This document shows positions 11,202 through 62,910 of a stretch of 64,000 nucleotides of DNA, one piece after another (position 1 is the stretch's first letter; every line of letters starts with the position of its first letter). The stretch is taken from NCBI GenBank assembly GCA_951406725.2, contig OX597827.1, positions 84,134,001 to 84,198,000 of the forward strand. The letters are read 5' to 3'. The stretch comes from Octopus vulgaris. Taxonomy: Eukaryota. Position numbers and translations under genes: made by a program. Under the pieces are notes generated by a model. The model had not been told where the DNA came from. It did not search any database and worked only from the letters and a program-made list of their open reading frames with translations.

Positions 11202-11629
11202 TATAAAATCCGAGGAAAAAACCTTACATCGAATCTTTGGTTAAAATACATATTATCATTAATAAAGGAAATATAATTAATACATGGAAATTGAAATTAA
11301 AATGTTAAAATGCATTAAAATATTACACAACAGTACATACTCATACTAAACTATACATATATACATCAACATACACAGATAGATGCACGCAGACCACATA
11401 CATATACAGACATATAAATACAAAGCTAAAATATGCACACAAATGCATGTACACATATGAATACGCAATCTAGCTCGCATGCAAAATCACTGAATCCATA
11501 TAGACTATAAGCTAAATTCATGGATGGGGAAGGGGCGTTCTTATTTACAACATAAAGCTAAAGACATAAGTAAGGGAGGGAGAGGGGGGGCGTAAAGTTA
11601 CAGGAGCCTTTATTCTTCATAGAATTCCC

Positions 11630-12190
11630 ATTTATAGATGCAGGTTTATATAGGGATGACGGCCTTATAGCCACCCATAATTTAAATGGCCATGAATCAG
11701 ATAGACTTAGGAAGGACCTTATTGCTTTCTTCCAAAGGATGGGCTTACGGGTTACAATAGATACTAACCTGAAAAGTGTAGATTTTTTAGATGTAAATTT
11801 TGATATAAGGTCAGATAGATTTAAACCTTACCGTAAGCCCAATGACAAGCTATCATATATTAGCAAAGATTCGAACCATCCACCAGTTATCCTTAGGAAC
11901 TTAGTCAGCAATGTAGGTAGAAGAATATCGTCAATTTCTTCAGATGATGCAGCATTCCATAATGCTGCACCTTATTACGATAGCACATTAAGGAATAGTG
12001 GATTCTCTGAGAAGATCCAGTACAACCAGCTTAATGCTGGTAGTAATGCTGCGCGCAGAACTAGGACCAGGAAAGTTTTGTGGTTCAACCTGGCTTTCAA
12101 TTTGGCCGTAAAAACTAATATAGGTAAGGAATTCTTGAAATTAGTCTCTAAGCATTTTAAGCAGGACCATAAATTCTATAGAATATAGAA
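11630..12190 (+). mobile_element. Penelope-like element reverse transcriptase fragment
   Basis: GLYRDDGL just upstream of ORF 11739, then VDFLDV, KPYRKPN..YI...SNHPP and LWFN. These are typical PLE RT motifs. A pLTR-like segment with a hammerhead lies at 10875-11030. Confidence 0.88.
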
Positions 12191-21379: not shown

Positions 21380-22444
21380 TTTGTGTTTGGTCAGTGATGA
21401 GATTAGCAAAAACTTGCACAAGATTCAGACCAAGCAGGATTTCATTTTCTGCCCACTGTCTGTTAAAGATCCAATTTGAGCCAGTTGCTACCAACTCTTC
21501 TGTTTGTATCTGTGCTACAATCAAACTATTCACTGAAATATATATGTCACATCTTCTGTTCAGAATGCCGTTGATTCTATCTTCTCCAATCTCCACACAT
21601 CCCATAAACAAACCCTCATCACTACCACCAGTAACAACACAAATATCTTTTGATTGGAGTTCAGTCAAATTTGATGTCTCTTCTTCGATATTTGTTATCA
21701 GAGCAAATCTGGCTGGACCTGGTGGACCACACACCTGAAGAAATTTAGTGACTTTATCCACTTCAAATTTCCATTCACTGCGATGAATGCAACCCTCTCC
21801 AAAACTCTCAGACAAAAGTAACACCTGAGTGGTTCCTTTGGACAATGTTATTAAATATGCAGATGCTGAAGTTGCATCTTGCTGGCCACAAGAATGAGAA
21901 CAGAGTGCAATTAAGGATGCATGAGGGAGACAGTATGAAAATTCAATCAGTTTGGAATGCAAAGAGCCATCATGGTTTGATACAAAAATGGTTTTTGCTT
22001 TCTTCTTATTGTTGTTAAGATTTTCTCGGTTATGATATAAACTATAAACAGAGTGTGCACAGCCTTTCACCAACAATTGACCACTTGAATTAACAGAAAA
22101 CTCCCACTGATCTTCACCTTTAATAAATGACTTCTGAAATGTATTTCCTTTGTGCCCACTGCGGATGAGGTAACATGCACTGACAACTGTGTTTTCCTGA
22201 AGGGCACTGCAGATAATGAGGCTGCAGCCACTTCCATGAATCTTATCATAACAACCATTTACATTGAGTGGGCAATTAGTATATTCCTCACAATCATCAC
22301 TTCCTTTAAACACCAAGCCATGTCCACAATGTCCGTTGACCTTCCAGTTTGACATTAGCATCACATGATTTGAGCCAGAAAAGCAGTCAACAATGAGTTC
22401 TCCATTCTCATTAGTTATAAAACTACTAGCTGGGATTAAATGAC
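21380..22444 (-). CDS. Exon 3 (1065 nt); tandem beta-rich repeats
   Basis: aatacag|GT...CAA A|gtaagt, phase 1-1, open for about 355 codons. Internal repeats SL...S......SA.YLI.SG..GN...W.F.V...G.L.V. Confidence 0.92.
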
Positions 22445-23239
22445 CTGTATTAGAGGTAAAAAAAAAAGTATATGATACAATAATTGGCAATAATGATTAA
22501 TTAATAGCTGTGATGACAACTACAACAATAACGAAGTAAAACAACATGATGACATCTTGGCCCTCAAGCTCTTTCACCATGTTTCACATCATTTTTTGAA
22601 CCTAGCACATATATACTTCTTTGCATTTCTGAAATTACCTTTATTGTAAACTACTTTCACTCTGATTCAAAAGTAGAGTCAAGTAACCAAAATACTCTAC
22701 ATTGACTACAATTGTGCCAAGTTGTTTATAGGTCACACAAAAGCCCAAATTTATACCCAGTATGCTGAATTGAACAATCACTGAGCTAACATTTTTGTTA
22801 ATAGTTTTAACCCAACACTGTAATTCCCTGCCACCATCAACTCCTTAGACATTTTGACCGTGTCAACTCCATCCATTGCATTCAATCTCACTTTATTATA
22901 AAACAACACATTTCCTTCCTCATAATTTCTTCAGCCTTCTATTGAGCATAATCTTCTACTGAACTCAGACCACTCAATCAACTGCCTACTCATTCTACAA
23001 TTCATCAATTTCTAACCCACAACCCAAACGTCAGCATCTATCTCTCTTACAAAAACTTTGAACCATTATAGTCTTTATGGCAATTAAACTCATTCAGTTC
23101 TTCTACAGATAAATTTGTGCCAAAACTTCACTATATTCCTTTTGTAATTATGTGGTTAATCATATTAAATAATAATATGTTTGTTAATTTATTAATTATT
23201 CAAACAATGTAATGTTAATTGTGATAATTACATAAATAA

Positions 23240-25350
23240 CTAGCTGACATATCCAGTAATTTCCGAAAAAGTGGGGCTTATCCCTTGGTTCAGTTCACTT
23301 AATTGTTTTGCTAATCCAATAACATAAATACAAAGTATGTAGCCCTTAAAATGGTTTTTATGCACTTACAGAGAATATTGAACTGTCTCACATAGGATCT
23401 TATTTTTAGGAATTCCTAATAAGTTATGAATAGGCAAATTGTGAAGTCAGTTATGTAATAACATGAAATTAGTTACCTGATAGTAAGAATTCAAATAAAG
23501 TAATCCCGTAAAGGTCTTTAATGTGTTCCCAGGGTATACAGAACTTAGGGGGAAATACCAATAAAGTATGTATACCAAAATCATGAAGCATGTTATGTAA
23601 TAACAGGCTAATCAGATATGAGATAATAACAATTCAAAGTAAATAACTCTGAAAAGGGCTTTTGTGCATTCCCAGAGAATATAACCCTTAGGGGTGCTAG
23701 TGTTGAAATAGATTTACAACGAATGTAGAAACAGACTGACATTTAGTTTTACAGTAGACATACAAATAAATTTGCATAAAATAATACGTAGATTATCAAT
23801 ACATTTACAACACTTACAAATATTATAGTTAAATAATAAATACTTGATGATTTGGTGAATCTTATTAAGTTTGCAGAGCTTCTTGATAAACAACATATTT
23901 GATCTTTCCTTGTGGGGCATAAATAAACAAATGATTAGGATTGCCGACTCTTGAGCATCTCACATAAAGTTGGCCATGGGGGAAAACTGGTTTGACAAGG
24001 TTCAGACCTACCACATTCAAGGACTGCCCCTGGGCCTTGTTAATGCTCATTGCAATGCTCAGTTTCAATGGGAATTGTACTGGAAAGGCATATCCAAGGG
24101 AATAAGTAGAATTCTAGGAATGAATGCAGGCTCACCGCTTGCTTTACCAGTCAAAGACTGTTGACATCATCTTCTTTATGCCAACAGTCATGTGCCATGG
24201 CAAAACTTTGGTGGATTGAGGTTTCGAAGCAGCATAATTAGTGCCCCAATGTTGAGGTGCAAGTTGTGAGATGGGAGGCCAGGTGGTGTTAGACTATTCA
24301 AAAGTTTAACTAGATAATTCACAGCTTCATCAATGTTGAGTACTGCATCAATGGAATTGTAGATGTGATACTCACCTGGCAACTGTTCCAGAAATTTAAA
24401 GCTCAAATCATCAACTGCCACAGTTTTTGGAGCTAAAATGGCACGGGTTTTCAGTCAGTTATGGTCTGTAAACTGATTCCTCAGGTTAAGAAACACCTTA
24501 TTCATTAGTTCCTTTAAATCAGATACCATGTGTCCAAAAGGCAAGCTTACCCAGCCATCCTTTTCACCAACTGAAGTGCCATTACCAAAGTGCAATAGTT
24601 GCTTTGAAAAGATTCTGTCTGCATCATCACCACTGAGCTGCACTCTCATGTTGGTTGTGAGTCTCATCTTTCGCACACTGCTCCATAGGTAGGGACGACT
24701 TTATGCTGGCATTTACTTCATCAGCTCTTGTCCCCTTTGGAACCACAGGAACGGTTTGCCTAAAGTCTCCGGCAAGCAAGATTGTGGAACCTCCCATGAG
24801 CCTGGTGTTCTGTTTCAGATCCTGAAGGGCCATGTCAAGAGCTTCAAAGGAAACTTTATGTCTCAAGGGAAATTTTGCTGCTTTATCCCAGATGCTGAAC
24901 CTGCAATCACTCAGAACTTTGCCTTTTATAGAACCACAACTGCATCGTCATTCATGGTATATTCGTGAATAAGTCACTAACCAAAGTAAGTGGATCTATT
25001 GTTTAGGAAAATACTATTTACTTGTTAAAGGGTTGTAGTTGATAAATTGCGAAAATAACTGTAGCAGTTCAAATACTAAGAAATAAACATAGCTTGGTTT
25101 CTACCAAATAATATAAGAAAAGGAATGGATTATTTCCCTTGGCTGTTAAAATAAAATACTTTAGTTATATATAAGGATCCTTTCCAGAGGCTGTGGCCAT
25201 CCAATTATAGATTTTTATTAAACTTCAATGAGTTTAGTAACAAACTGGATGTTACTTTAGAATGTTTGTAAAGTTTCACGAAAATTTACTAATGGATGTA
25301 TATGGCAACTTTGACACAAACAGACAACTTGCTTTTATATATGTATAAGA
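23240..25350 (-). mobile_element. Helitron (internally deleted) with Pif1 helicase pseudogene
   Basis: Minus-strand 5' end A|TCTTATACATATATAAAA at 25350 and 3' end CTAG|T at 23240, with an imperfect hairpin. Internal motifs LLAGDFRQ, LTTNMR, MLLRNL, AMSINKAQGQSL and HGQLYV.SRV lie at 23865-24900. Confidence 0.88.
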
Positions 25351-25354
25351 TAAC

Positions 25355-26430
25355 CTTAATTATGTACAGTTCTATATTTAAGAGATGAGGAATTATATAC
25401 ATTCGACAGATATTTGTCCTCATCTTGTTTTTTCAGCTGATATACCCTCCAGCCTTTTTCAGGTGTCTTGGGGAAATTTCAAACCTGGGTTCTCATTCCA
25501 AAGGTAATTTTTGAGGTTATTATTATTATTATTATTATTGTTGTTATTGCTTAACAGATCATTATTTCTTTCTATGAAGAAATGATCAAGCTCAATAATG
25601 ATCTGTTAAGCAACAACTACTCCAAAAGTATATTATCCATTCTAATTATGAAGAAGAGAGAGGATGAGGCCAATAAACTGTCCACAGTCTGTCTACCCTA
25701 TGTGAATGGCCTCTCTGAAAAGATACAAAAGATATGTGGCCCATATGACATCAGGACAGTATTCAAGAGTAATACAGCACTTTGCAAATATCTCCTTCGA
25801 GTAAAACCACCAACAGAAGAGAATATGATTAAGAACTGCATGTACTCCATCCCATGCAGCTGTGGTAGGTTATACAAAGGCGGAACATGCTGCCCCCTCA
25901 AAATAGGGGTAGACGAACATCGCAAAGCTGTGACATGAGGAGATATTGATAAATCGGGTATAGCTGATCATGTATGGGAAAATGGAGACCACCTCCCCCT
26001 TTGGGATGAAGTTAAAATAATAGACAGAGAACACCACTGGAAAATATGAAAGCTAAAAGAAGCAGCACATATGCTAGGACACAACAACCTCCTAAGCAGA
26101 CTGAGTGCAGATATGAGCAGCATATGAGAACCAGTATTAAGGAAGGATTGAAAAATATTACATTTATAAACCCTAAAATTCATTCCATAATTGCCCACAG
26201 CCTATGGCATAGTGGTTAAAAGCATGGGCTACTAACCTCAAGATTTCGAGTTTGATTCCAAGAAGTGACCTGAACAATAATAATAATAGTAATAATAACA
26301 TGAATGAGAATGCAGGTTTGAAATTTCCCAAGACACCTGAAGAAGGCTGGAGGATATATCAGCTGAAACGTGTTAACAACAAACAAGATGAGGACAAATA
26401 TCCATCGAATGTAAGTAATGTACTTAATTA
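25355..26430 (+). mobile_element. Penelope-like element fragment with GIY-YIG endonuclease, flanked by inverted pseudo-LTRs
   Basis: LPYV.GLSEKI...VFK, then YSIPCSCG..Y.G.T....R..EH (GIY-YIG). 25360-25520 is the reverse complement of 26290-26430. Confidence 0.85.
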
Positions 26431-26466
26431 TGTAGTTGATAATTATAGTGTTTGAAGTAAACTTAC

Positions 26467-26694
26467 CTTGATAACTTTGAACTATTGAGACTACTGCAAA
26501 ATGATTGCAATTGAAGCCAGAACGCAGCAGAAACATCTGTGCTGTGGTGTTGGACCCTTCTGAGCCATAAGCATTTGATATGAAGACAAGAGAGCAACAG
26601 CCACCATAATGGCTATTAATATTGAACTTCAATGGAGCATAGCAACGTATGGGCCATTTGCTTTGGGCTGATGACCACAGGCAGCTATATTGTA
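26467..26694 (-). CDS. Exon 2; first half of repeat unit 1
   Basis: ctttag|TA...CAA G|gtaagt, phase 1-1. Encodes QYSCLWSSAQSKWPIRCYAPLKFNINSHYGGCCSLVFISNAYGSEGSNTTAQMFLLRSGFNCNHFAVVSIVQSYQG, which is homologous to the repeats in exon 3. Confidence 0.88.
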
Positions 26695-27865: not shown

Positions 27866-28810
27866 TCTATAATCAAAGGGATTCCTGTGGTGATTATCTT
27901 ATCTTTTATTCATTCATAGTGTATCTAGGACTACACTATCTAATATATTTGACATTATGATTATTGTTGAGGCCAGTTCCAATCCAGTGGACCTTATGAG
28001 CCAATAGATTAAGTTCCATTTTTATTCCAATAGTATATCAAAGACAACATTATCTAATGTCTAATATTGTAATTAGTATTGGGTGTTGTAATTGTTGTTG
28101 TTATTTAATCTTGCTTAACCCTGACACAGCCAAGCTGTGATCTAAGAGGTTCCTGCCTTATTTTTTAAAATTATATTTTGATGAAAGATATTTTGTAAAC
28201 ATTTCACAACCTCTGTTAAAGTACAGAGCACATGCAACTTTCTGTCTCTGTCAGATACTCAGGTAATTACAGAACATCAACAGTTTATTTCATCTGGTTT
28301 TAGAAGATGTAATGATGGCTAAATGTGCTCTGTAATGCAAACAGGTAACATAGCAACTAATAAATACTGGGTTCTTATCTTATCTGTGATACTGCTGTTC
28401 TTATCTCTGCCTCAAATAATTGTTTTTAATGTTAAAATATTCTGAAGTTGTAAATTGCTTAGTGCTTTGACTGTGGGAAGTACTTATGACAGATGATCAT
28501 GGACAATAAGGAAGGAGGTCAGGTCACAAAATGCTAGGTCACACTAATCAGATGATGTGTCATCTGGTGTTATTTAGCCGTGTGTCAGCTCTGACTGAGC
28601 AAATATTTGATCAGAGTCATTCCAGCCATGAATGTTTCTAAGTCAGTAGTAACCTTCAATTGCATTGTCCAATATGTCTTTTCCTTTTCTGTCTGTGTTT
28701 TAAATTTTATTAGTCAAACTCTAAATTCATATATTTATCATCTCTAATATTACATTAAAATCTTAGACATTGATTCATTATTTTTGATTACCCAAGACAT
28801 TTCTACTTAC

Positions 28811-28991
28811 TGTTTTGCATTTGGTTAAATTCCATCTTAGAATTTTCTGGAAAAATGACCTTTGATGTTGACAAAATTTTCTTTTCTGGCTGATTAAAAT
28901 TTTCTGCAATATTCAGAATATCTCCAGAAAGGGAGTCTGTAGAATGGGGAGAATCTAAAGGTTTTGTTCTTACATCAACAGCCAATGGATC
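28811..28991 (-). CDS. Exon 1 (most 5' exon found); low-complexity linker
   Basis: ctactacag|GAT...AAC A|gtaagt, phase 0-1, in frame with exon 2. Encodes DPLAVDVRTKPLDSPHSTDSLSGDIL... It starts at an acceptor, so more exons lie upstream. Confidence 0.72.
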
Positions 28992-29514
28992 CTGTAGTAG
29001 AAGTAAATGGAATGATAAATTTTGGTATGAGATGTTATGTTGTCAGACTATCAGACATTTTTCCATGGGAATTCTAATCAATATGATTATAAATTCCAAA
29101 TTTTATTTAATTTGCTTTGCGGGAAGGACTGTTTCAACAAAGTCGCGTCTTGCCCTTGCCTTCAGAATGTGGAGTAGATGAAACAGGGACAACTGAAAAA
29201 GGGGAATATTCTTTATGTTGTATGTCATGTTTCTCTGTTTGTTTGTTTTTTGTTGTTCGAAAAAAATTTGTTTCTATGTTTTTGTTTTTATGTTTTCATT
29301 TCTCATTGTGTTCAACGTTTTTTTTTATGTCCTGTACCCATATATGCATGTATATATACATATATATGTAGGTATGTACATATATGTATATATGCATATA
29401 TTTATATATTATTTATATTATCAAATGATCGAATGCCACGCATCCTTTTCCATGTACACATATATATACATATGTATACATATACATATATACACACACA
29501 CACCTGTATATATA

Positions 29515-31241: not shown

Positions 31242-31585
31242 GTGTGCACACATGTGTGCGCACAGGTGCGTGTGTATCTGATGAACTTTTGAAGGCTTCA
31301 TTACAGAAAGAAAAAGAAGAAAAAGTTAAGACAGGAAAGAAAGAACAGGGGTTTGTATTCTTAAAGTCAGTTGCTATGTAGCTGTTGAAGTTAAAGACAA
31401 TTCAAGATGTCAGTTTTGTTTTAATCATTGTTTTGAAAGTGTCACGTTCTGTCTCATTATATACATATTAACATGTATGTAACTATACACATACATATTA
31501 CACAAACATACACACAGATAATATATATATATATATATATATATTTACATCTATGCATGTGTGTGTGCGTATATATGTGTGTGTG

Positions 31586-31626
<41 letters not shown>

Positions 31627-31629
31627 TCA

Positions 31630-32530
31630 TCATTTCTTGCGAGCTTACGCATATCCTCAGCAGTCACGGCCCATGTTTCACTACCATGTAGCATGGCTGT
31701 ACGTACACATGCATCATACAGTCTGCCTTTTACTCTGAGCGAGAGGCCTTTTGTCACCAGCAGGGGTAAGAGCTCTCTAAACTTTGACCAGGCTATTCTT
31801 ACTTTAGCAGTAACACTTTCAGCACACCCACACCCGCTACTGACTTGGTCTCCTAGGTAGCGGAAGCTATCAACTACTTCTAGTTTGTCTCCCTGGAACG
31901 TGGTAGAAGTTGGTCTCTGCACATTTCCAGTGTTTATTTCTCCTGAGCATCTGCCACATACGAAAACTATCTTCCCAGTTAGCCTACCTTTGACATTGCT
32001 GCACCTCTTATGTGTCCATAGCTTACACTTGGTGCACCTTATAGAGTTTCTACCTACACCTTTTTTACAGATCGAGCAGGGCCATCTACCTGAAGTCGTT
32101 TGTGGTTGGTCCACCTTCCTACTTATTAGGACTTTGGTTTTGGCTAGGTTGATTCTAAGGCCCTTCGATTCTATTCCTTGTTTCCACACCTGAAACTTCT
32201 CCTCCAGTTCTGATAGTGACTCAGCAATTAGAGCAAGGTCATCAGCATAGAGGAGCTCCCAGGGGTATCCTGTCTTGAATTCTTCCGTTATTGCCTGGAG
32301 GACTATGATAAATAGGAGGGGCTGAGGACTGAACCTTGGTGGACCCCAACCTCTACCCGGAATTCTTCACTGTACTCGTTGCCAACCCTCACCTTACTAG
32401 CAGCGTCTCTATACATATGTATATATATATTAGTTTCCTCATTGACCACCAGATGGATTGTCAAAGGCTTTCTCTAAGTCAAAAAAGTTTTGATTTTTTG
32501 GCTATATTTCTCCTGCAGCTGTCTTACCAG
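31630..32530 (-). mobile_element. Second RTE RT copy with PHD-like finger, truncated
   Basis: ORF 31551..32189 is closely similar to ORF 2..1201. The LLYADD region is at about 32240-32260. It is cut by microsatellite at about 31630 and decays into TA-rich noise after about 32410. Confidence 0.92.
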
Positions 32531-39489: not shown

Positions 39490-41685
39490 TCAGAATTTGG
39501 GCACTATGGCCCACTCAAGTAGAGAGTTATTGTTTACAGAGACATATCCGGGTGTAGGGGGTTTATCCGGGATTTCTTGAAGGAATCTGTCCAAAGACTT
39601 CTTGAACCCTATAGGGTCAGTTTCTGTTTTAATGTGTTTTGGTGTAATGTTAAAGAGAGCGGGGCCAATTGAGGTGAAATAATTGTGCCGTATTGTTGTT
39701 ATGAGATGAGAGTGCGATTTTTGTTTTGGGCGGATGGCACGGGCCCCAAGCCTTGGATGTACCTTAAAGGTGATGCCAACATCATTTGGGCAATGCTGAT
39801 GGAATATTTTCCACATCATGCAGATGATGTAGCGCTCATGACGACGTTGGAGAGAATAGAGTTTTAGCTTTTCTAGTCGACCCCAATAGTCGAGGACTGT
39901 CATGCCATCTATCTTTTTTGTGATTGCCCTTTGAGGTGCTTCAACTTTTATGATACCTTGTATTGTGTGGGGAGACCACAGTGGACAACAGTATTCAAGG
40001 TGGGGTTGGGCAAAAGTGGAGAAGAGAAGGATAATGGTGTGGATATCTCTCGACTGGAAAGTTCTGAGAATCCAGGAACACATTCTGCGGGCCATGTCAA
40101 CTTTGGTGTTTATATGAGTGGCCCAGCTTATGTTGTTGTCCACAATTACTCCCAAGTCTCTGATGTTGTTGGACGCCGCGAGAGTTTCACCTGAAGGAAG
40201 GGAGTATGGGAGTTTCAGGGCATCCTCTTTTCCAAAGTGGATTAGCTCAAATTTATCCTCGTTCAGCAGCATATTGTTTTTTTCTGCCCATTGGATAACA
40301 GCCAGTAGATCTGACTGAAGGCATGTCCGGTCACTCGCCTCATTTATGACCTTCTGTAGCTTGGAGTCATCTGCAAAGATTTTTATGTTGCTGTGCTTGA
40401 TGATGTCATTAATGTCATTAATGTAGATGATGAAAAGAAGTGGGCCCAGCACAGTGCCTTGCGGAACGCCACTACTGACTTTGGCTGGGCTTGATTTTAC
40501 CCCTTCAACTACAACATGTTGAGATCTGTCTGTCAGGAAACACTTGATCCATTTCAGTAACTTTCCAGAGACACCAATGTTGGATAGTTTTTTCAATAGG
40601 ATCTTGTGATCAACCCTGTCGAAGGCCTTACTGAAATCAAGGTAGATGACATCGGTGTTGGAGCCCTCTCCCAAAGCTCTCAAAATGTCATCAAAGTGAT
40701 GCAGGAGCTGCGTTAGGCAGTCCCTTCCATTACGGAACCCATGTTGGTTGGAGATCAGCCGTCTGTTGCTTTCCAGAAATTGGGTTATTCGAGATCTCAC
40801 CACCCTCTCAAATACCTTGATGATATGAGAGGTGAGTGAGATCGGACGGTAATTCACTGCAAGGGACTTGTTTCCCTTTTTGAAAACTGGGACAACAGAC
40901 TGGGACAGAAGGTTTCTTGGAATATAGCCAGCATCCAGTGAGTTTCTCCACAGATTAGCAAGGGGAGATGCAAGTTGGTGTCGACACACCTTCAGGACAC
41001 AAGCAGGGAACCTATCGGGGCCTACTGCTGAATTGTGTTTTATTTCGTTTATCGCCGCTAAGACATCAGGGGCACTAAACGTTATGTCCGATATAGTGTG
41101 TTGGGGGTTGACATCACTGATACAGCCCAGATCGGCCATATCAGGATTGCTGAAAACAGAGCAGTATTGTTTCTGCAGTATCTCGGCCATGGATTTGGCA
41201 TTATCTTGGAGAGTGCCAGTTTCGTCAATTAGAGGGCCTACAGTGGAGACAGTGACCCTGCATTTCCTCGCAAATGAAAAGAACACTTTGGGGTTGAGTT
41301 TGATTTTTTCAATGGCCCACTTCTCCTCAGCTGATCTTTGGTTATTGATGAGGGTCTTCATGCATTGTTGGAGGTTATATTTTTTGGATTCAAGCAGTGC
41401 GATAGCCGTCGAATGTGTGTGTTGCTGTTGGCAGTACTTTAGTTTGTTAATTTTTTTGTTTGTTCTTTTTATTTTTCTGATAATGGTTTTTCTGTTTTGG
41501 GGGATTCTGCACTTTTTGTTCACAGGTCTTGGTGGGGAGTGTTTTGCACATATGTCTGTGACGGTGTCTACAAAGATCTGCCAAGATGTTTTATGGTTGG
41601 TGGAGATGTGTGTATGTGTAAAGGACCAGTCAACATTTGATAGCTCATTCCTGATTGCATCCCAGTTGGCTTTATGGAGATCCAT
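39490..41685 (-). mobile_element. CR1-clade LINE ORF2 (RT domain), 731 aa uninterrupted; 5' part runs into the gap
   Basis: GPD, NYRPISLTS, QHGFR, YLDFSKAFDRV, SGVPQGTVLGP, FADD, RDLGV, LEYCCPLWSP, LYSLQRR. Confidence 0.95.
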
Positions 41686-41706
41686 GTTGTCAAATGGGTG
41701 GGCTGG

Positions 41707-41806
41707 NNNNNNNNNNNNNNNNNNNNNNNNNNNNNNNNNNNNNNNNNNNNNNNNNNNNNNNNNNNNNNNNNNNNNNNNNNNNNNNNNNNNNNNNNNNNNN
41801 NNNNNN
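41707..41806. other. Assembly gap (100 N)
   Basis: Run of N. Confidence 1.
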
Positions 41807-42044
41807 AAGACTAGTGAATGACCTGTTTTTTTTTCTCCCAGAATAAGTAATATTTTGTCTCATTAAAATATTGGCAGATTTTCGAGAAAGTATTTAGTTA
41901 AAGACGGTAAAAACAAGAAACATTTTAGGGATCAAAATACATATCAGTTTTCATCTGTTTTTATTTCCATATCTCACATTATATATAATAAAGCACAGAC
42001 AGGACATTTTAGCAATCAGTGTCTGTGTTGACAATATTTTTAGT

Positions 42045-43679: not shown

Positions 43680-44830
43680 ACAGAAAACCTAACTGGCTAA
43701 CCATATTGGCCTGCTGTAGCATGGACAAGTTTTGTAGTTAAGAGTGAAAACATCAACTTGGTTACAAGATATTCGCTCATTGCTTGCCAAAACATTATGT
43801 AAATATTTTACGGAAAAATATCTACCAATTCCTCCAAGACTATCTTAAGAATCTGGTGACTGATAACAGGTAGGAGAAGACATTGTGGAGATTTATCGAA
43901 CAACATTTGGTAAATAAAGCTGCTGGGAGTAAGAAAACTCTGCAGAAATCTTGTGACTTTATGATATGATTACAGAAAGGTATTCTATTCGAAGCTCATG
44001 GTTGCTGGTGTAGCTGTATTTGATAAAGTACCTACTGACTGTACTTAATAAAGAATCTCCTGATTTTGTTATTGCCATTGAAAAATCTCACCTCGGCATC
44101 AATGTCCATATTTGTAAGTGAAAGCATAACGACTGCCTCCAAAGTTATAATTATTTGAAAGGGAATATTCCAAGGTGACAGTCTGTCTCTGCTTCTGTTT
44201 ATTTTGGCCAGGAATCTACTGTTATTTAAAAAAAAATGAAAATCCAGTTTTTGTCTTGGGGGTCTACAATAGCAAGAGGTAGTAATGTAACCCATAATTT
44301 CTTTGTGGACGATCGAAAGATCTAAGCCTGAAATGTATACAATGCGGACAAACAGCTACATTTAATTACATTTTCCGCTGATCTTGGGAAATGTTCATAT
44401 TTAACAACTGAATATGGAACAAACTATTCCTCAAACCCAAAATCTTTGCATCAACGACATCTCTGTTTCCCCTTTTCCATATAATGAATAATACAAATAT
44501 TTAGGCATTTCTAAAACTATATCATACAAAGGTACTGTGAACAAGTAGTGACCAAAAAATAATCCCAGACGAAAAAAGATATGACCGTCAGAGCTTTCCT
44601 CTTGTAACAAGACAATATCCCAAAATGCATTTTCAGTATCCGTATTGATACCAAGATTCGGGATTTTTGACTGGTCTATAGAGGAAATCTGCTCCATAAA
44701 GTATTAAAATCTGCAAGACCCTGAAAATTCCACTGAAACAATGATAGTAATTAGACGCTATTTCCGAGGAGACATGAAGGGGCTAAAGATCAGTACAGTC
44801 TTTGAGTGTGGTTTGTTATCAATCGTATAA
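43680..44830 (+). mobile_element. Degenerate R4/Dong-like non-LTR RT
   Basis: GIFQGDSLSLLLF near 44162, HNFFVDD near 44294 and YKYLG near 44490, with many stops and frameshifts. Confidence 0.7.
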
Positions 44831-61785: not shown

Positions 61786-62910
61786 CTCATCAGACGCATC
61801 AAAAGACTTAATAAAAAAATCAATCAATCAATCAAAATACTCCCACATGCAACATCCACATTCAACAACAATGAAAAGGCTGGAGTTGGAAAACATGAAA
61901 ACCAGCATTGAAAAATCAAAGAGCTGCAGAGGAACAGGGTAATAAAAAAAAATCAAACTGGACCAAAAAGTGTTTCATTCATCTGCAAATAAGAATAGGA
62001 CAGCTCTTATACCACATCGATGATATCCTTAAAACCTTGGGATCAAGTTCGAGCTCTGATGTCATATATCTTGACTTCAGTAAAGCGTTCGACAATGTTG
62101 ACCATAATATCCTACTGTCAAAATTGTCAAATGTTGGAATCCGTGGAGAACTTCAACACCGGATTGAGTATTTCCTGGAGAACAGAACACAAAATCTTGT
62201 GATCGGTGGAATCCACTGAAGCCCGGCAAAAGTCACCAGTGGTTCCCCTCGGCGGACTGTCTTGGGTCCGCTCCTCATTATAGTCTATATAAACGACTTT
62301 TCTAGCGTCATAAAACACAGCAAAGTGAAAATATTCGCTGAAGAAGAAGAAGACCGAACTGAACTCCAGTCTGATCTATATGCTGTGAGTCAATGGGCAG
62401 ACAGAAACAAAATGCAACTAAACGAGGGAAAATTTGAGCTGATGCATTTTGGAAGAAAGACTATGCTAAAACAGCCATACTCTCTTCCTTCAGGGGAACC
62501 ACTCACAGCTTGTAAATATCAGAGACCTAGGAGTAATTGTTGATAACAATCTTAGCTGGAGTGCCCACATCAACACTAAGGTCGATATAGCTCGTAGGAT
62601 GAGCTCCTGGATCCTAAGATCCTTCCGGTCCAGAGAACAAGGTGTCATCATTCCTCTTTTCTCCTACTTTGCACGGCCATACCTCGAATACTGCTGCCCC
62701 CTGTGGTCTCCCCATACAAAACAAAACATCTCGAAAATTGAATCATCCCAGAGGTCGTTCGCAAAAAGAATTAAGGGCATGACTGATTTCGAATCAGATC
62801 AAAGAGGAAAAGGATCCCATCACCTTTAAACGGAATCTGGACAAATTTCTTCAAAGAATACCAGGTAAGCCACCCATACCTGGATACAACTCACTCAACA
62901 AGAACTCCGT
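61540..62910 (+). mobile_element. Degraded, internally deleted CR1 copy related to 39490-41685
   Basis: DVIYLDFSKAFDNVDH, GPLL.IVYIND, LEYCCPLWSPHT. Frameshifts, an (AG)n insertion, and a large deletion near 61990. Confidence 0.88.

Follow-up and report, generated by a model that had tools for sequence, protein, structure and literature searches.

How did an octopus gene come to carry three tandem copies of an unnamed beta-rich module, and what might such a block do in an animal protein? The question is raised by a gene on the minus strand of a stretch of 64,000 nucleotides (nt) of the Octopus vulgaris genome (contig OX597827.1, positions 84,134,001-84,198,000 of assembly GCA_951406725.2; hereafter the window, in whose coordinates all positions are given), two exons of which encode three units of approximately 105-110 amino acids (aa). 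An earlier note, made from the sequence of this DNA, had likened the units, all of which could be located on the minus strand, to small C-terminal modules of marine phage or giant-virus fibre proteins and had suggested a horizontally acquired binding module. The explanation which we prefer, with a probability of about 0.45, is that the trimer tip of a phage or bacterial protein was captured, triplicated and kept as the recognition module of a membrane-tethered STAND NADase, which would make the protein a predicted membrane sensor with sugar recognition.

Three repeat units and their single relatives

In the octopus protein alone, pairwise self-similarity is weak. Among 2000 shuffles per pair, the real score was equalled by 2 for units 1 and 2 and by 19 for units 2 and 3, which is significant or marginal, and by 455 for units 1 and 3, which is not significant. 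Profiles of homologs (28, 34 and 36 rows for units 1, 2 and 3, respectively) were also aligned with hhalign: units 1 and 2 match with a probability of 97.6 (E-value 4e-12), units 2 and 3 with 98.7 (2e-16) and units 1 and 3 with 73 (3e-5), the last pair scoring 29 against a best of 15.5 among 40 column shuffles. An AlphaFold2 model of the animal triple, based on a 58-row alignment (predicted local distance difference test, pLDDT, 94.4; predicted template-modelling score, pTM, 0.93), repeats one eight-strand pattern three times, and the triple is predicted to pack as one rigid body. The three tandem copies are thus borne out by homolog profiles and strand pattern; the self-similarity on which the earlier note had made the repeat depend is significant with profiles, so the repeat stands.

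The shared sequence pattern was found again, but the length first given for the unit (75-110 aa) had to be corrected: it spans 105-110 aa and eight strands, one of them an extra N-terminal strand beyond the motif first noted, and since this strand belongs to the unit, unit 1 starts near position 26680. That most of the repeat sits in one exon of 1065 nt applies to the end of unit 1 and to units 2 and 3, all in exon B (21380-22444, with 100% identity to the O. vulgaris protein P0003), but unit 1 is mostly encoded by exon A of 228 nt (26467-26694, recognised by its splice sites and by 98.7% identity to the O. sinensis protein P0015). The last strands of unit 1, supported by hhalign and by the AlphaFold2 strand pattern, follow in exon B (22347-22444), as do unit 2 (22029-22325) and unit 3 (21690-22001), both seen in the AlphaFold2 model and matched in P0015 by a hidden Markov model (HMM) of single modules (E-values of 2e-12 and 2e-3, respectively, which, as all E-values of this HMM, refer to a database of 39 sequences). 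Unit 3, with a profile-profile probability of 98.8, is the most diverged, and its RSG..GN loop is eroded.

In agreement with the earlier remark that no known animal domain could be assigned, Pfam scans gave no match to the unit, and no family for it was found in PHROG, NCBIfam or PDB sequences either, PHROG matches covering other fibre parts only. In the ESM Atlas, the score of animal unit 3 was below 0.9; the nearest clusters of the phage module are unnamed, two of the three being mostly viral (0.91-0.93), which is a lead only.

Where else does the module occur? An HMM of the animal region, run against 1.84 billion representatives, gave 104 hits, which were sorted by inspection of the entries listed: 92 seem to be fragments or complete versions of this same animal gene, and ten are single modules, either C-terminal or stand-alone. 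The other two, the cadherin proteins P0108 and P0121, were dropped as chance matches. Outside animals the module is single, forming the C-terminal end of tail-fibre- or tailspike-like proteins or a small open reading frame (ORF), and tail, tailspike or virion families lie upstream of it in five of the 11 proteins scanned (the ten single modules and a longer cluster mate). The reverse, single-module profile matched gp50 of phage CRP-345, viral contigs of IMG/VR, a protein of an Elusimicrobia metagenome-assembled genome (MAG) and animals, reaching E-values of 2e-22 in Sinanodonta and 2e-15 in Acanthaster over the whole database.

Among cultured phages (50,697 records), gp50 of CRP-345 (UAW59136.1, a putative tail fibre) is the only match over the module, which forms the last ~88 of its 1084 aa (tblastn E-value 3e-12) and is 42% identical over 90 aa to the stand-alone module P0115. 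In IMG/VR contigs, the module ends a fibre-like ORF of 208 aa with adjoining tail genes (L001), lies at the end of a 460-aa tailspike with head genes around it (L008), or constitutes, on a phage contig, an ORF of 103 aa whose neighbour is a long fibre-like gene (L002:7953-8264). Three other loci (L005-L007) matched another part of P0102, gave no module hit and were set aside. Stand-alone module ORFs measure 103-128 aa (L002, P0105 and P0115); they may represent a tip adhesin with a gene of its own. Two of them, P0105 and P0115, lie on short contigs or are unplaced and may be truncated. In the Elusimicrobia MAG, the module is found at the end of a fibre-like protein (L010:3878-6160, minus strand) amid chromosomal-looking genes, so that bacteria are possible donors as well. 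Narrow scans of GTDB genomes gave no relative with P0115 and, with a DNA motif, one Elusimicrobia MAG locus.

The HMM built from the ten single modules finds three hits in 29 of the 39 animal proteins, one or two in the other ten, which are fragments, and never four. Homology links the three units with one another as well as with the single module of phage type, and the animal proteins hold exactly three copies. Single modules match units 1, 2 and 3 with scores of 96, 113 and 86 and with profile probabilities of 98.8-99.5 (shuffle controls applied), compared with scores of 62, 81 and 29 for the pairs 1-2, 2-3 and 1-3; since the single modules match the units at least as well as the units match each other, this is the pattern expected if the single form is ancestral. 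Searching directly with the animal sequence gave nothing viral, and the link emerges through profiles only. The profile search proposed in the earlier note has returned reciprocal phage-type matches, and the suspected likeness to marine phage fibre modules has proved to be homology which includes a cultured marine phage, CRP-345. For giant viruses the idea was not upheld: no homolog was found at the sequence level, and one Mimivirus and two Marseillevirus models appeared as weak Foldseek rows only.

Tail fibres and tailspikes are homotrimers. Three copies of the stand-alone module P0105 are predicted to form a cyclic homotrimer with a score of 0.83, the best of three controls reaching 0.00; the mark applied to this score, calibrated on two copies and not on three, is one that 21 of 30 solved pairs and none of 23 solved single chains attained. 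Between the trimer runs, at least 68% of contacts are shared; the partner pLDDT is at least 76 and the interface cyclic. At seven predicted interface positions, the residue of the majority is the same for each of the three animal units (L, L, S, L, L, I and N); most of these residues are hydrophobic. Judging by these models, the animal triple probably has a pseudo-threefold geometry, and its three repeats are predicted to be a single-chain copy of the phage homotrimeric tip.

When the model of a single module was compared with 48,161 chains, the six best matches were all C-terminal domains of phage tail proteins (for example, 7xy1, Kp9 gp42, with Z 7.6, a root-mean-square deviation (rmsd) of 2.5 and 84 aligned of 86; 6e1r, the P1 tailspike, with Z 7.6, rmsd 3.5 and 84 aligned; 9f4a_LA with Z 6.7), and individual animal units match those tailspike and fibre domains too. 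Foldseek placed 6e1r first (E-value 3e-3) and T4 gp9 fifth, a weak agreement; rows with laminin and neurexin were rejected (template-modelling score 0.12-0.16, rmsd over 22). Structure comparison, another of the checks suggested earlier, accordingly ranks phage tail C-terminal domains first, if with moderate Z-scores. The whole triple found no match among solved chains, which does not make the arrangement new. The best folds for module and animal units are C-terminal beta-sandwiches of tailspikes and fibres (vB_ApiP_P1, 6E1R; Kp9 gp42, 7XY1; AM24, 5W5P; Fri1, 6C72) and T4 gp9 (1QEX), all of which we take to be trimeric structures. They have the C-terminal position in common with the phage-type module, but identity to them is at most 23%, with no sequence-profile hit, and unlike in the tailspike tips, the animal subunits are fused in one chain of a protein without a fibre shaft. 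True sequence homologs of the animal unit are gp50 of CRP-345 and the fibres and tailspikes of uncultured phages: in gp50, one unnamed and uncharacterised copy ends a virion fibre, whereas in animals a STAND protein carries three copies in tandem close to its N-terminus. The animal triple is a derived variant and not a fibre. Domains like that of 6E1R are called putative saccharide binders in PMC12923769.

The host protein and its descent

The protein as a whole measures ~1900 aa, of which the repeats make up no more than an N-terminal portion. Full-length orthologs (1870-2000 aa) consist of a low-complexity N-terminus, the three repeats, a domain of ~100 aa (domain 4), a malectin-like domain, an FBA domain, DUF4062/NIR, a NACHT-like NTPase, a helical region and TPRs. 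The malectin-like profile PF11721 is above cut-off in P0004, P0006, P0007 and P0035 and is not listed for P0003 and P0005. The FBA profile is above cut-off (FBXO2 match with an E-value of 3.5e-19), and the aromatic (Tyr/Phe)-Trp pair aligned to FBXO2, which we take to be the glycan-binding residues, is kept in 13 of 14 matched orthologs. DUF4062 exceeds the Pfam cut-off in P0003 and orthologs. The octopus NIR domain aligns with the TEP1 structure sequence (TEP1-TIR match, E-value 1.7e-14), and the register given by R908, R954 and R976 places TEP1 E1008 on the Glu of SVTQLEI; this glutamate is present in 11 of 13 sequences, the exceptions being P0003, which is without that stretch, and Anneissia, unmatched in the motif search. 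Walker A is intact in all 13 orthologs that are long enough and the Walker B pattern in 12 of these; the NACHT profile is at or above cut-off in P0005, P0024, P0043, P0047 and P0055 and just below it in P0003, P0006 and P0007. Half of the orthologs (8 of 16) begin with MGxxxS, by consensus a myristoylation-type start. TPR_NPHP3 (43-85 bits, cut-off 100) and NPHP3_hel (15-18 bits, cut-off 27.9) remain below their curated cut-offs, so that these profiles do not mark the protein as an NPHP3 ortholog.

With the NIR/DUF4062-NACHT proteins (TEP1, NWD1, NWD2, NPHP3 and TTC41) and the bacterial Avs/Vulcan NIR proteins, it shares DUF4062, the E1008-aligned Glu, the NACHT-like P-loop and C-terminal TPRs, but differs from them by an N-terminal extension of ~900 aa with the triple, domain 4, the malectin-like and the FBA domain. 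According to two preprints, DUF4062/NIR is a TIR-like NADase in bacterial anti-phage defence, is active in human TEP1 and is activated by oligomerisation, and the family is found in NLR-like eukaryotic proteins (10.64898/2026.05.01.722283; 10.64898/2026.09.04.749371); 'FBA' and 'mollusc/mollus' are missing from the main text of both. The FBA domain is shared with FBXO2, FBXO6 and FBXO27, to whose Tyr/Phe-Trp pair most orthologs align, but Pfam scans detected no F-box, and the output module is NIR-STAND and not an SCF ligase. Myristoylated FBXO27 is reported to sense glycans exposed on damaged lysosomes (PMC6389600) and so offers a precedent for an FBA protein with such a lipid anchor that detects membrane damage by its glycans.

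Named orthologs come from Octopus, Sepia, Mytilus, Sinanodonta, Capitella, Branchiostoma, Patiria, Acanthaster, Anneissia and Strongylocentrotus. In an unrooted tree of ten full-length proteins, cephalopods, bivalves, molluscs, asteroids and echinoderms are grouped as in the species tree, with six of seven inner branches starred. The units, in a tree of 90 columns, group by position and not by species, and the three label changes needed are the minimum; the triplication is therefore placed before the protostome-deuterostome split. As the orthologs follow the species tree, any transfer also predates this split and is not octopus-specific. Of the earlier suggestion of a horizontally acquired module, the phage-type homology has stood, but a recent or octopus-only event has not, the host gene having descended vertically since at least the mollusc-echinoderm ancestor. 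The phylogeny recommended there gave a species-tree-like ortholog tree, but its unit tree does not resolve the direction of transfer.

Origin and possible function

How could a tip of phage type work in such a protein? In the scheme that we propose, the tip module would have been acquired from a phage or bacterium before the protostome-deuterostome split. An N-terminal lipid anchor would tether the protein at the cytosolic membrane face, where the pseudo-trimeric tip, the malectin-like and the FBA modules might bind microbial or luminal glycans misplaced in the cytosol. The NACHT-like domain would then oligomerise and cluster the NIR domains, and the predicted NIR NADase would cleave NAD+, with death or signalling as output. 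Transfer in this direction, from phage or bacterium into the animal, is probable, because the fold has its deeper relatives among phage proteins, because the single form is similar to each of the three units and because a fused triple would most naturally derive from a homotrimer. Glycan binding by the putative lectin-like modules has roughly an even chance, and the activation of the STAND/NIR protein as sketched here is tentative. The boldest version, in which early bilaterians domesticated a phage receptor-binding trimer for cytosolic recognition of bacterial glycans, together with an Avs-like NAD-depleting effector, and kept both for more than 500 million years, seems unlikely to hold in full.

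A number of observations weigh against the captured tip as a sugar sensor. The ten single modules were picked by the animal profile and are hence biased towards animal units. The trimer prediction may have passed by its likeness to solved tailspike trimers, and conservation at the interface is only weakly above that elsewhere (p 0.03; 0.013, 0.19 and 0.17 for units 1, 2 and 3, respectively). All Z-scores of the fold comparison are under 8, which according to the tool possibly means just a common arrangement. The free unit tree contains no single animal clade, although the approximately unbiased (AU) test does not reject one (p-AU 0.31), and having no root it leaves the direction of transfer unsettled. 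In O. vulgaris and O. sinensis, the equivalents of TEP1 R908 and R976 are Lys, and the FBA Trp is replaced by Arg (P0003 and P0015), whereas 13 other sequences including O. bimaculoides keep it; glycan binding may have been lost or altered recently in that lineage. An MGxxxS start was found for no Octopus model. In the literature, the sugar role of phage C-terminal domains is itself putative (PMC11058221, PMC12923769), animal domains, C1q among them, are reported to have been taken up by fibres (PMC12923769), and human NWD1, NWD2 and NPHP3 are without NADase activity in vitro (10.64898/2026.05.01.722283; 10.64898/2026.09.04.749371). Finally, a NIR region 75% identical between phyla, in a gene on the species tree, is unlike a fast arms-race receptor.

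Such slow evolution would suit the main rival explanation, a protein of the same origin, with the same pseudo-trimer, which has a housekeeping task as a STAND scaffold in ciliary or membrane trafficking, much as NPHP3 or TTC41, the triple binding a self protein or glycan and NIR being silent or an interaction module. NPHP3 is myristoylated and ciliary. Descent along the species tree, NIR, NACHT and helical regions that are strongly conserved (mean identity 53-75%), the matches to NPHP3-type helical and TPR models, though below cut-offs, and the reported in vitro inactivity of NPHP3 all agree with a scaffold; we nevertheless consider it somewhat unlikely in view of the catalytic glutamate kept in 11 of 13 orthologs, of the two recognisable lectin folds adjoining the triple and of repeats whose divergence (34-37% mean identity) outpaces that of the C-terminal engine. 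Another possibility is that phages or bacteria took one unit from an animal, or that no transfer happened and an old fold persisted on both sides. The rarity of the sequence family in cultured phages (1 of 50,697 records), the reported capture of animal domains by fibres and a unit tree that cannot be rooted would fit, but the remoter relatives of the fold are proteins of phage tails, a homotrimer-forming single unit naturally precedes a fused triple, and the single modules are no less similar to the three animal units than these units are to one another; among the 104 hits, most of them without organism name, no other type of eukaryotic protein carries the module. Reversed or absent transfer is thus improbable.

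The triple might, moreover, have no ligand of its own and be a structural block, either a rigid spacer or a stabilising trimerisation remnant as in T4 gp9. In favour are the place of this fibre connector among the best matches by fold, conserved residues that mostly belong to core and interface, and the loss of the RSG..GN loop from unit 3; the module nevertheless occupies the distal C-terminus in phage proteins, and unit-specific motifs (DATSA in unit 3, FGxNH in unit 1) are kept across phyla, which makes a purely structural role quite improbable. Chance likeness among glycine-rich beta proteins, finally, could be suspected from the non-significant similarity of units 1 and 3 in octopus alone and from the two cadherins that entered the 104 hits by chance. 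In the face of reciprocal whole-database matches, profile probabilities far from those of shuffles and matching strand patterns, its likelihood is negligible, and the profile-profile and reciprocal database results refute it for practical purposes.

Our literature search, whose coverage left aside most subscription papers and preprint supplements that may list these proteins, found no description of the architecture or of its phage link, no mention of five ortholog locus ids and no paper that combines three of the four subjects NPHP3, NACHT, FBA and cephalopods; DUF4062 is absent from the accessible part of PMC8195603. The parts are of known kinds (tailspike tip fold, NIR-NACHT-TPR, FBA), and the unit is without a family name in the libraries scanned. 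Through it, an unnamed domain family ties phage tail tips to a conserved animal gene, and the captured tip would show clearly how a viral module that forms homotrimers can become a triple within one chain. Eukaryotic NIR-NACHT-TPR proteins are NLR-like NADases with triggers that are largely unknown according to the 2026 preprints; because this member carries recognisable candidate ligand-binding domains, the activator of an animal NIR NADase becomes testable. The protein may also stand for a route of pattern recognition, in molluscs, annelids, amphioxus and echinoderms, which scans for NACHT-LRR genes would overlook. If the boldest version were true, an animal immune receptor would have been assembled from a phage host-recognition tip and a bacterial anti-phage effector domain.

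Exons and other elements in the window

Ten exons of the gene were mapped between 28994 and 3058, all on the minus strand, its 3' half lying beyond the window with the exons for the end of FBA, NIR, the NACHT-like domain and the TPRs. The most upstream of them (28809-28994), found by tblastn of P0003 and P0004 and with acceptor and donor present, encodes a low-complexity linker ahead of the repeats. Exons A and B have AG/GT ends, are both of phase 1-1 and join in frame without stops across an intron of 4022 nt within unit 1 (22445-26466, delimited by the flanking splice ends); the GC content of exon B (0.39) is like that of the other exons. Exon A is skipped by the public O. vulgaris model (CAI9733595.1, that is, P0003) and included in the RefSeq protein of O. 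sinensis (P0015) and in the O. bimaculoides-cluster protein (P0004). The same public model is without several other window exons and begins with a six-codon exon, MDIDAE, at 44092-44109 on the minus strand; this first exon at 44109 looks doubtful, and no MGxxxS first exon was found upstream of the repeats in the window.

After the repeats, exon B continues into domain 4 (21381-21650), an unnamed domain of ~100 aa conserved in ortholog alignments. It was considered as a fourth repeat and rejected, as it bears no similarity to the repeat, and it has no convincing Pfam or PDB match; its pattern is somewhat reminiscent of bacterial Ig-like domains, and it could have arrived together with the repeats. 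Four exons (19516-19355, 15728-15586, 12823-12725 and 8293-7994), located by exact-match exon mapping to P0015, encode the malectin-like domain and the linker to FBA, and three more (4830-4660, 3755-3675 and 3181-3058) the FBA lectin domain, as seen by Pfam, tblastn, exon mapping and the FBXO2 match.

About a dozen single ORFs, at least one of them on a 2.3-Mb contig, span all three repeats and domain 4 unbroken, so the block is intron-poor elsewhere too, which fits a foreign origin without being proof of it. The ends of ORF fragments (P0079, P0085, P0090, P0113 and P0123, compared with P0012) suggest that unit 1 is interrupted by an intron just behind its FLLR motif in some animals, and where the octopus has its intron in another record; going by these sequences, the introns in unit 1 may be separate gains in different animals.

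Remnants resembling reverse transcriptases of retroelements were recognised by eye from ORFs at 2-1198, 11574-12185, 25555-26140 and 61899-62826 on the plus strand and at 31551-32366 and 39493-41859 on the minus strand; a Pfam scan of 25555-25935 gave no match. The intron within unit 1 further contains a broken remnant of a PIF1 helicase of the Helitron type (~23865-24947, minus strand), with Pfam E-values of 1.5e-16 for PIF1 and 7e-11 for Pif1_2B.

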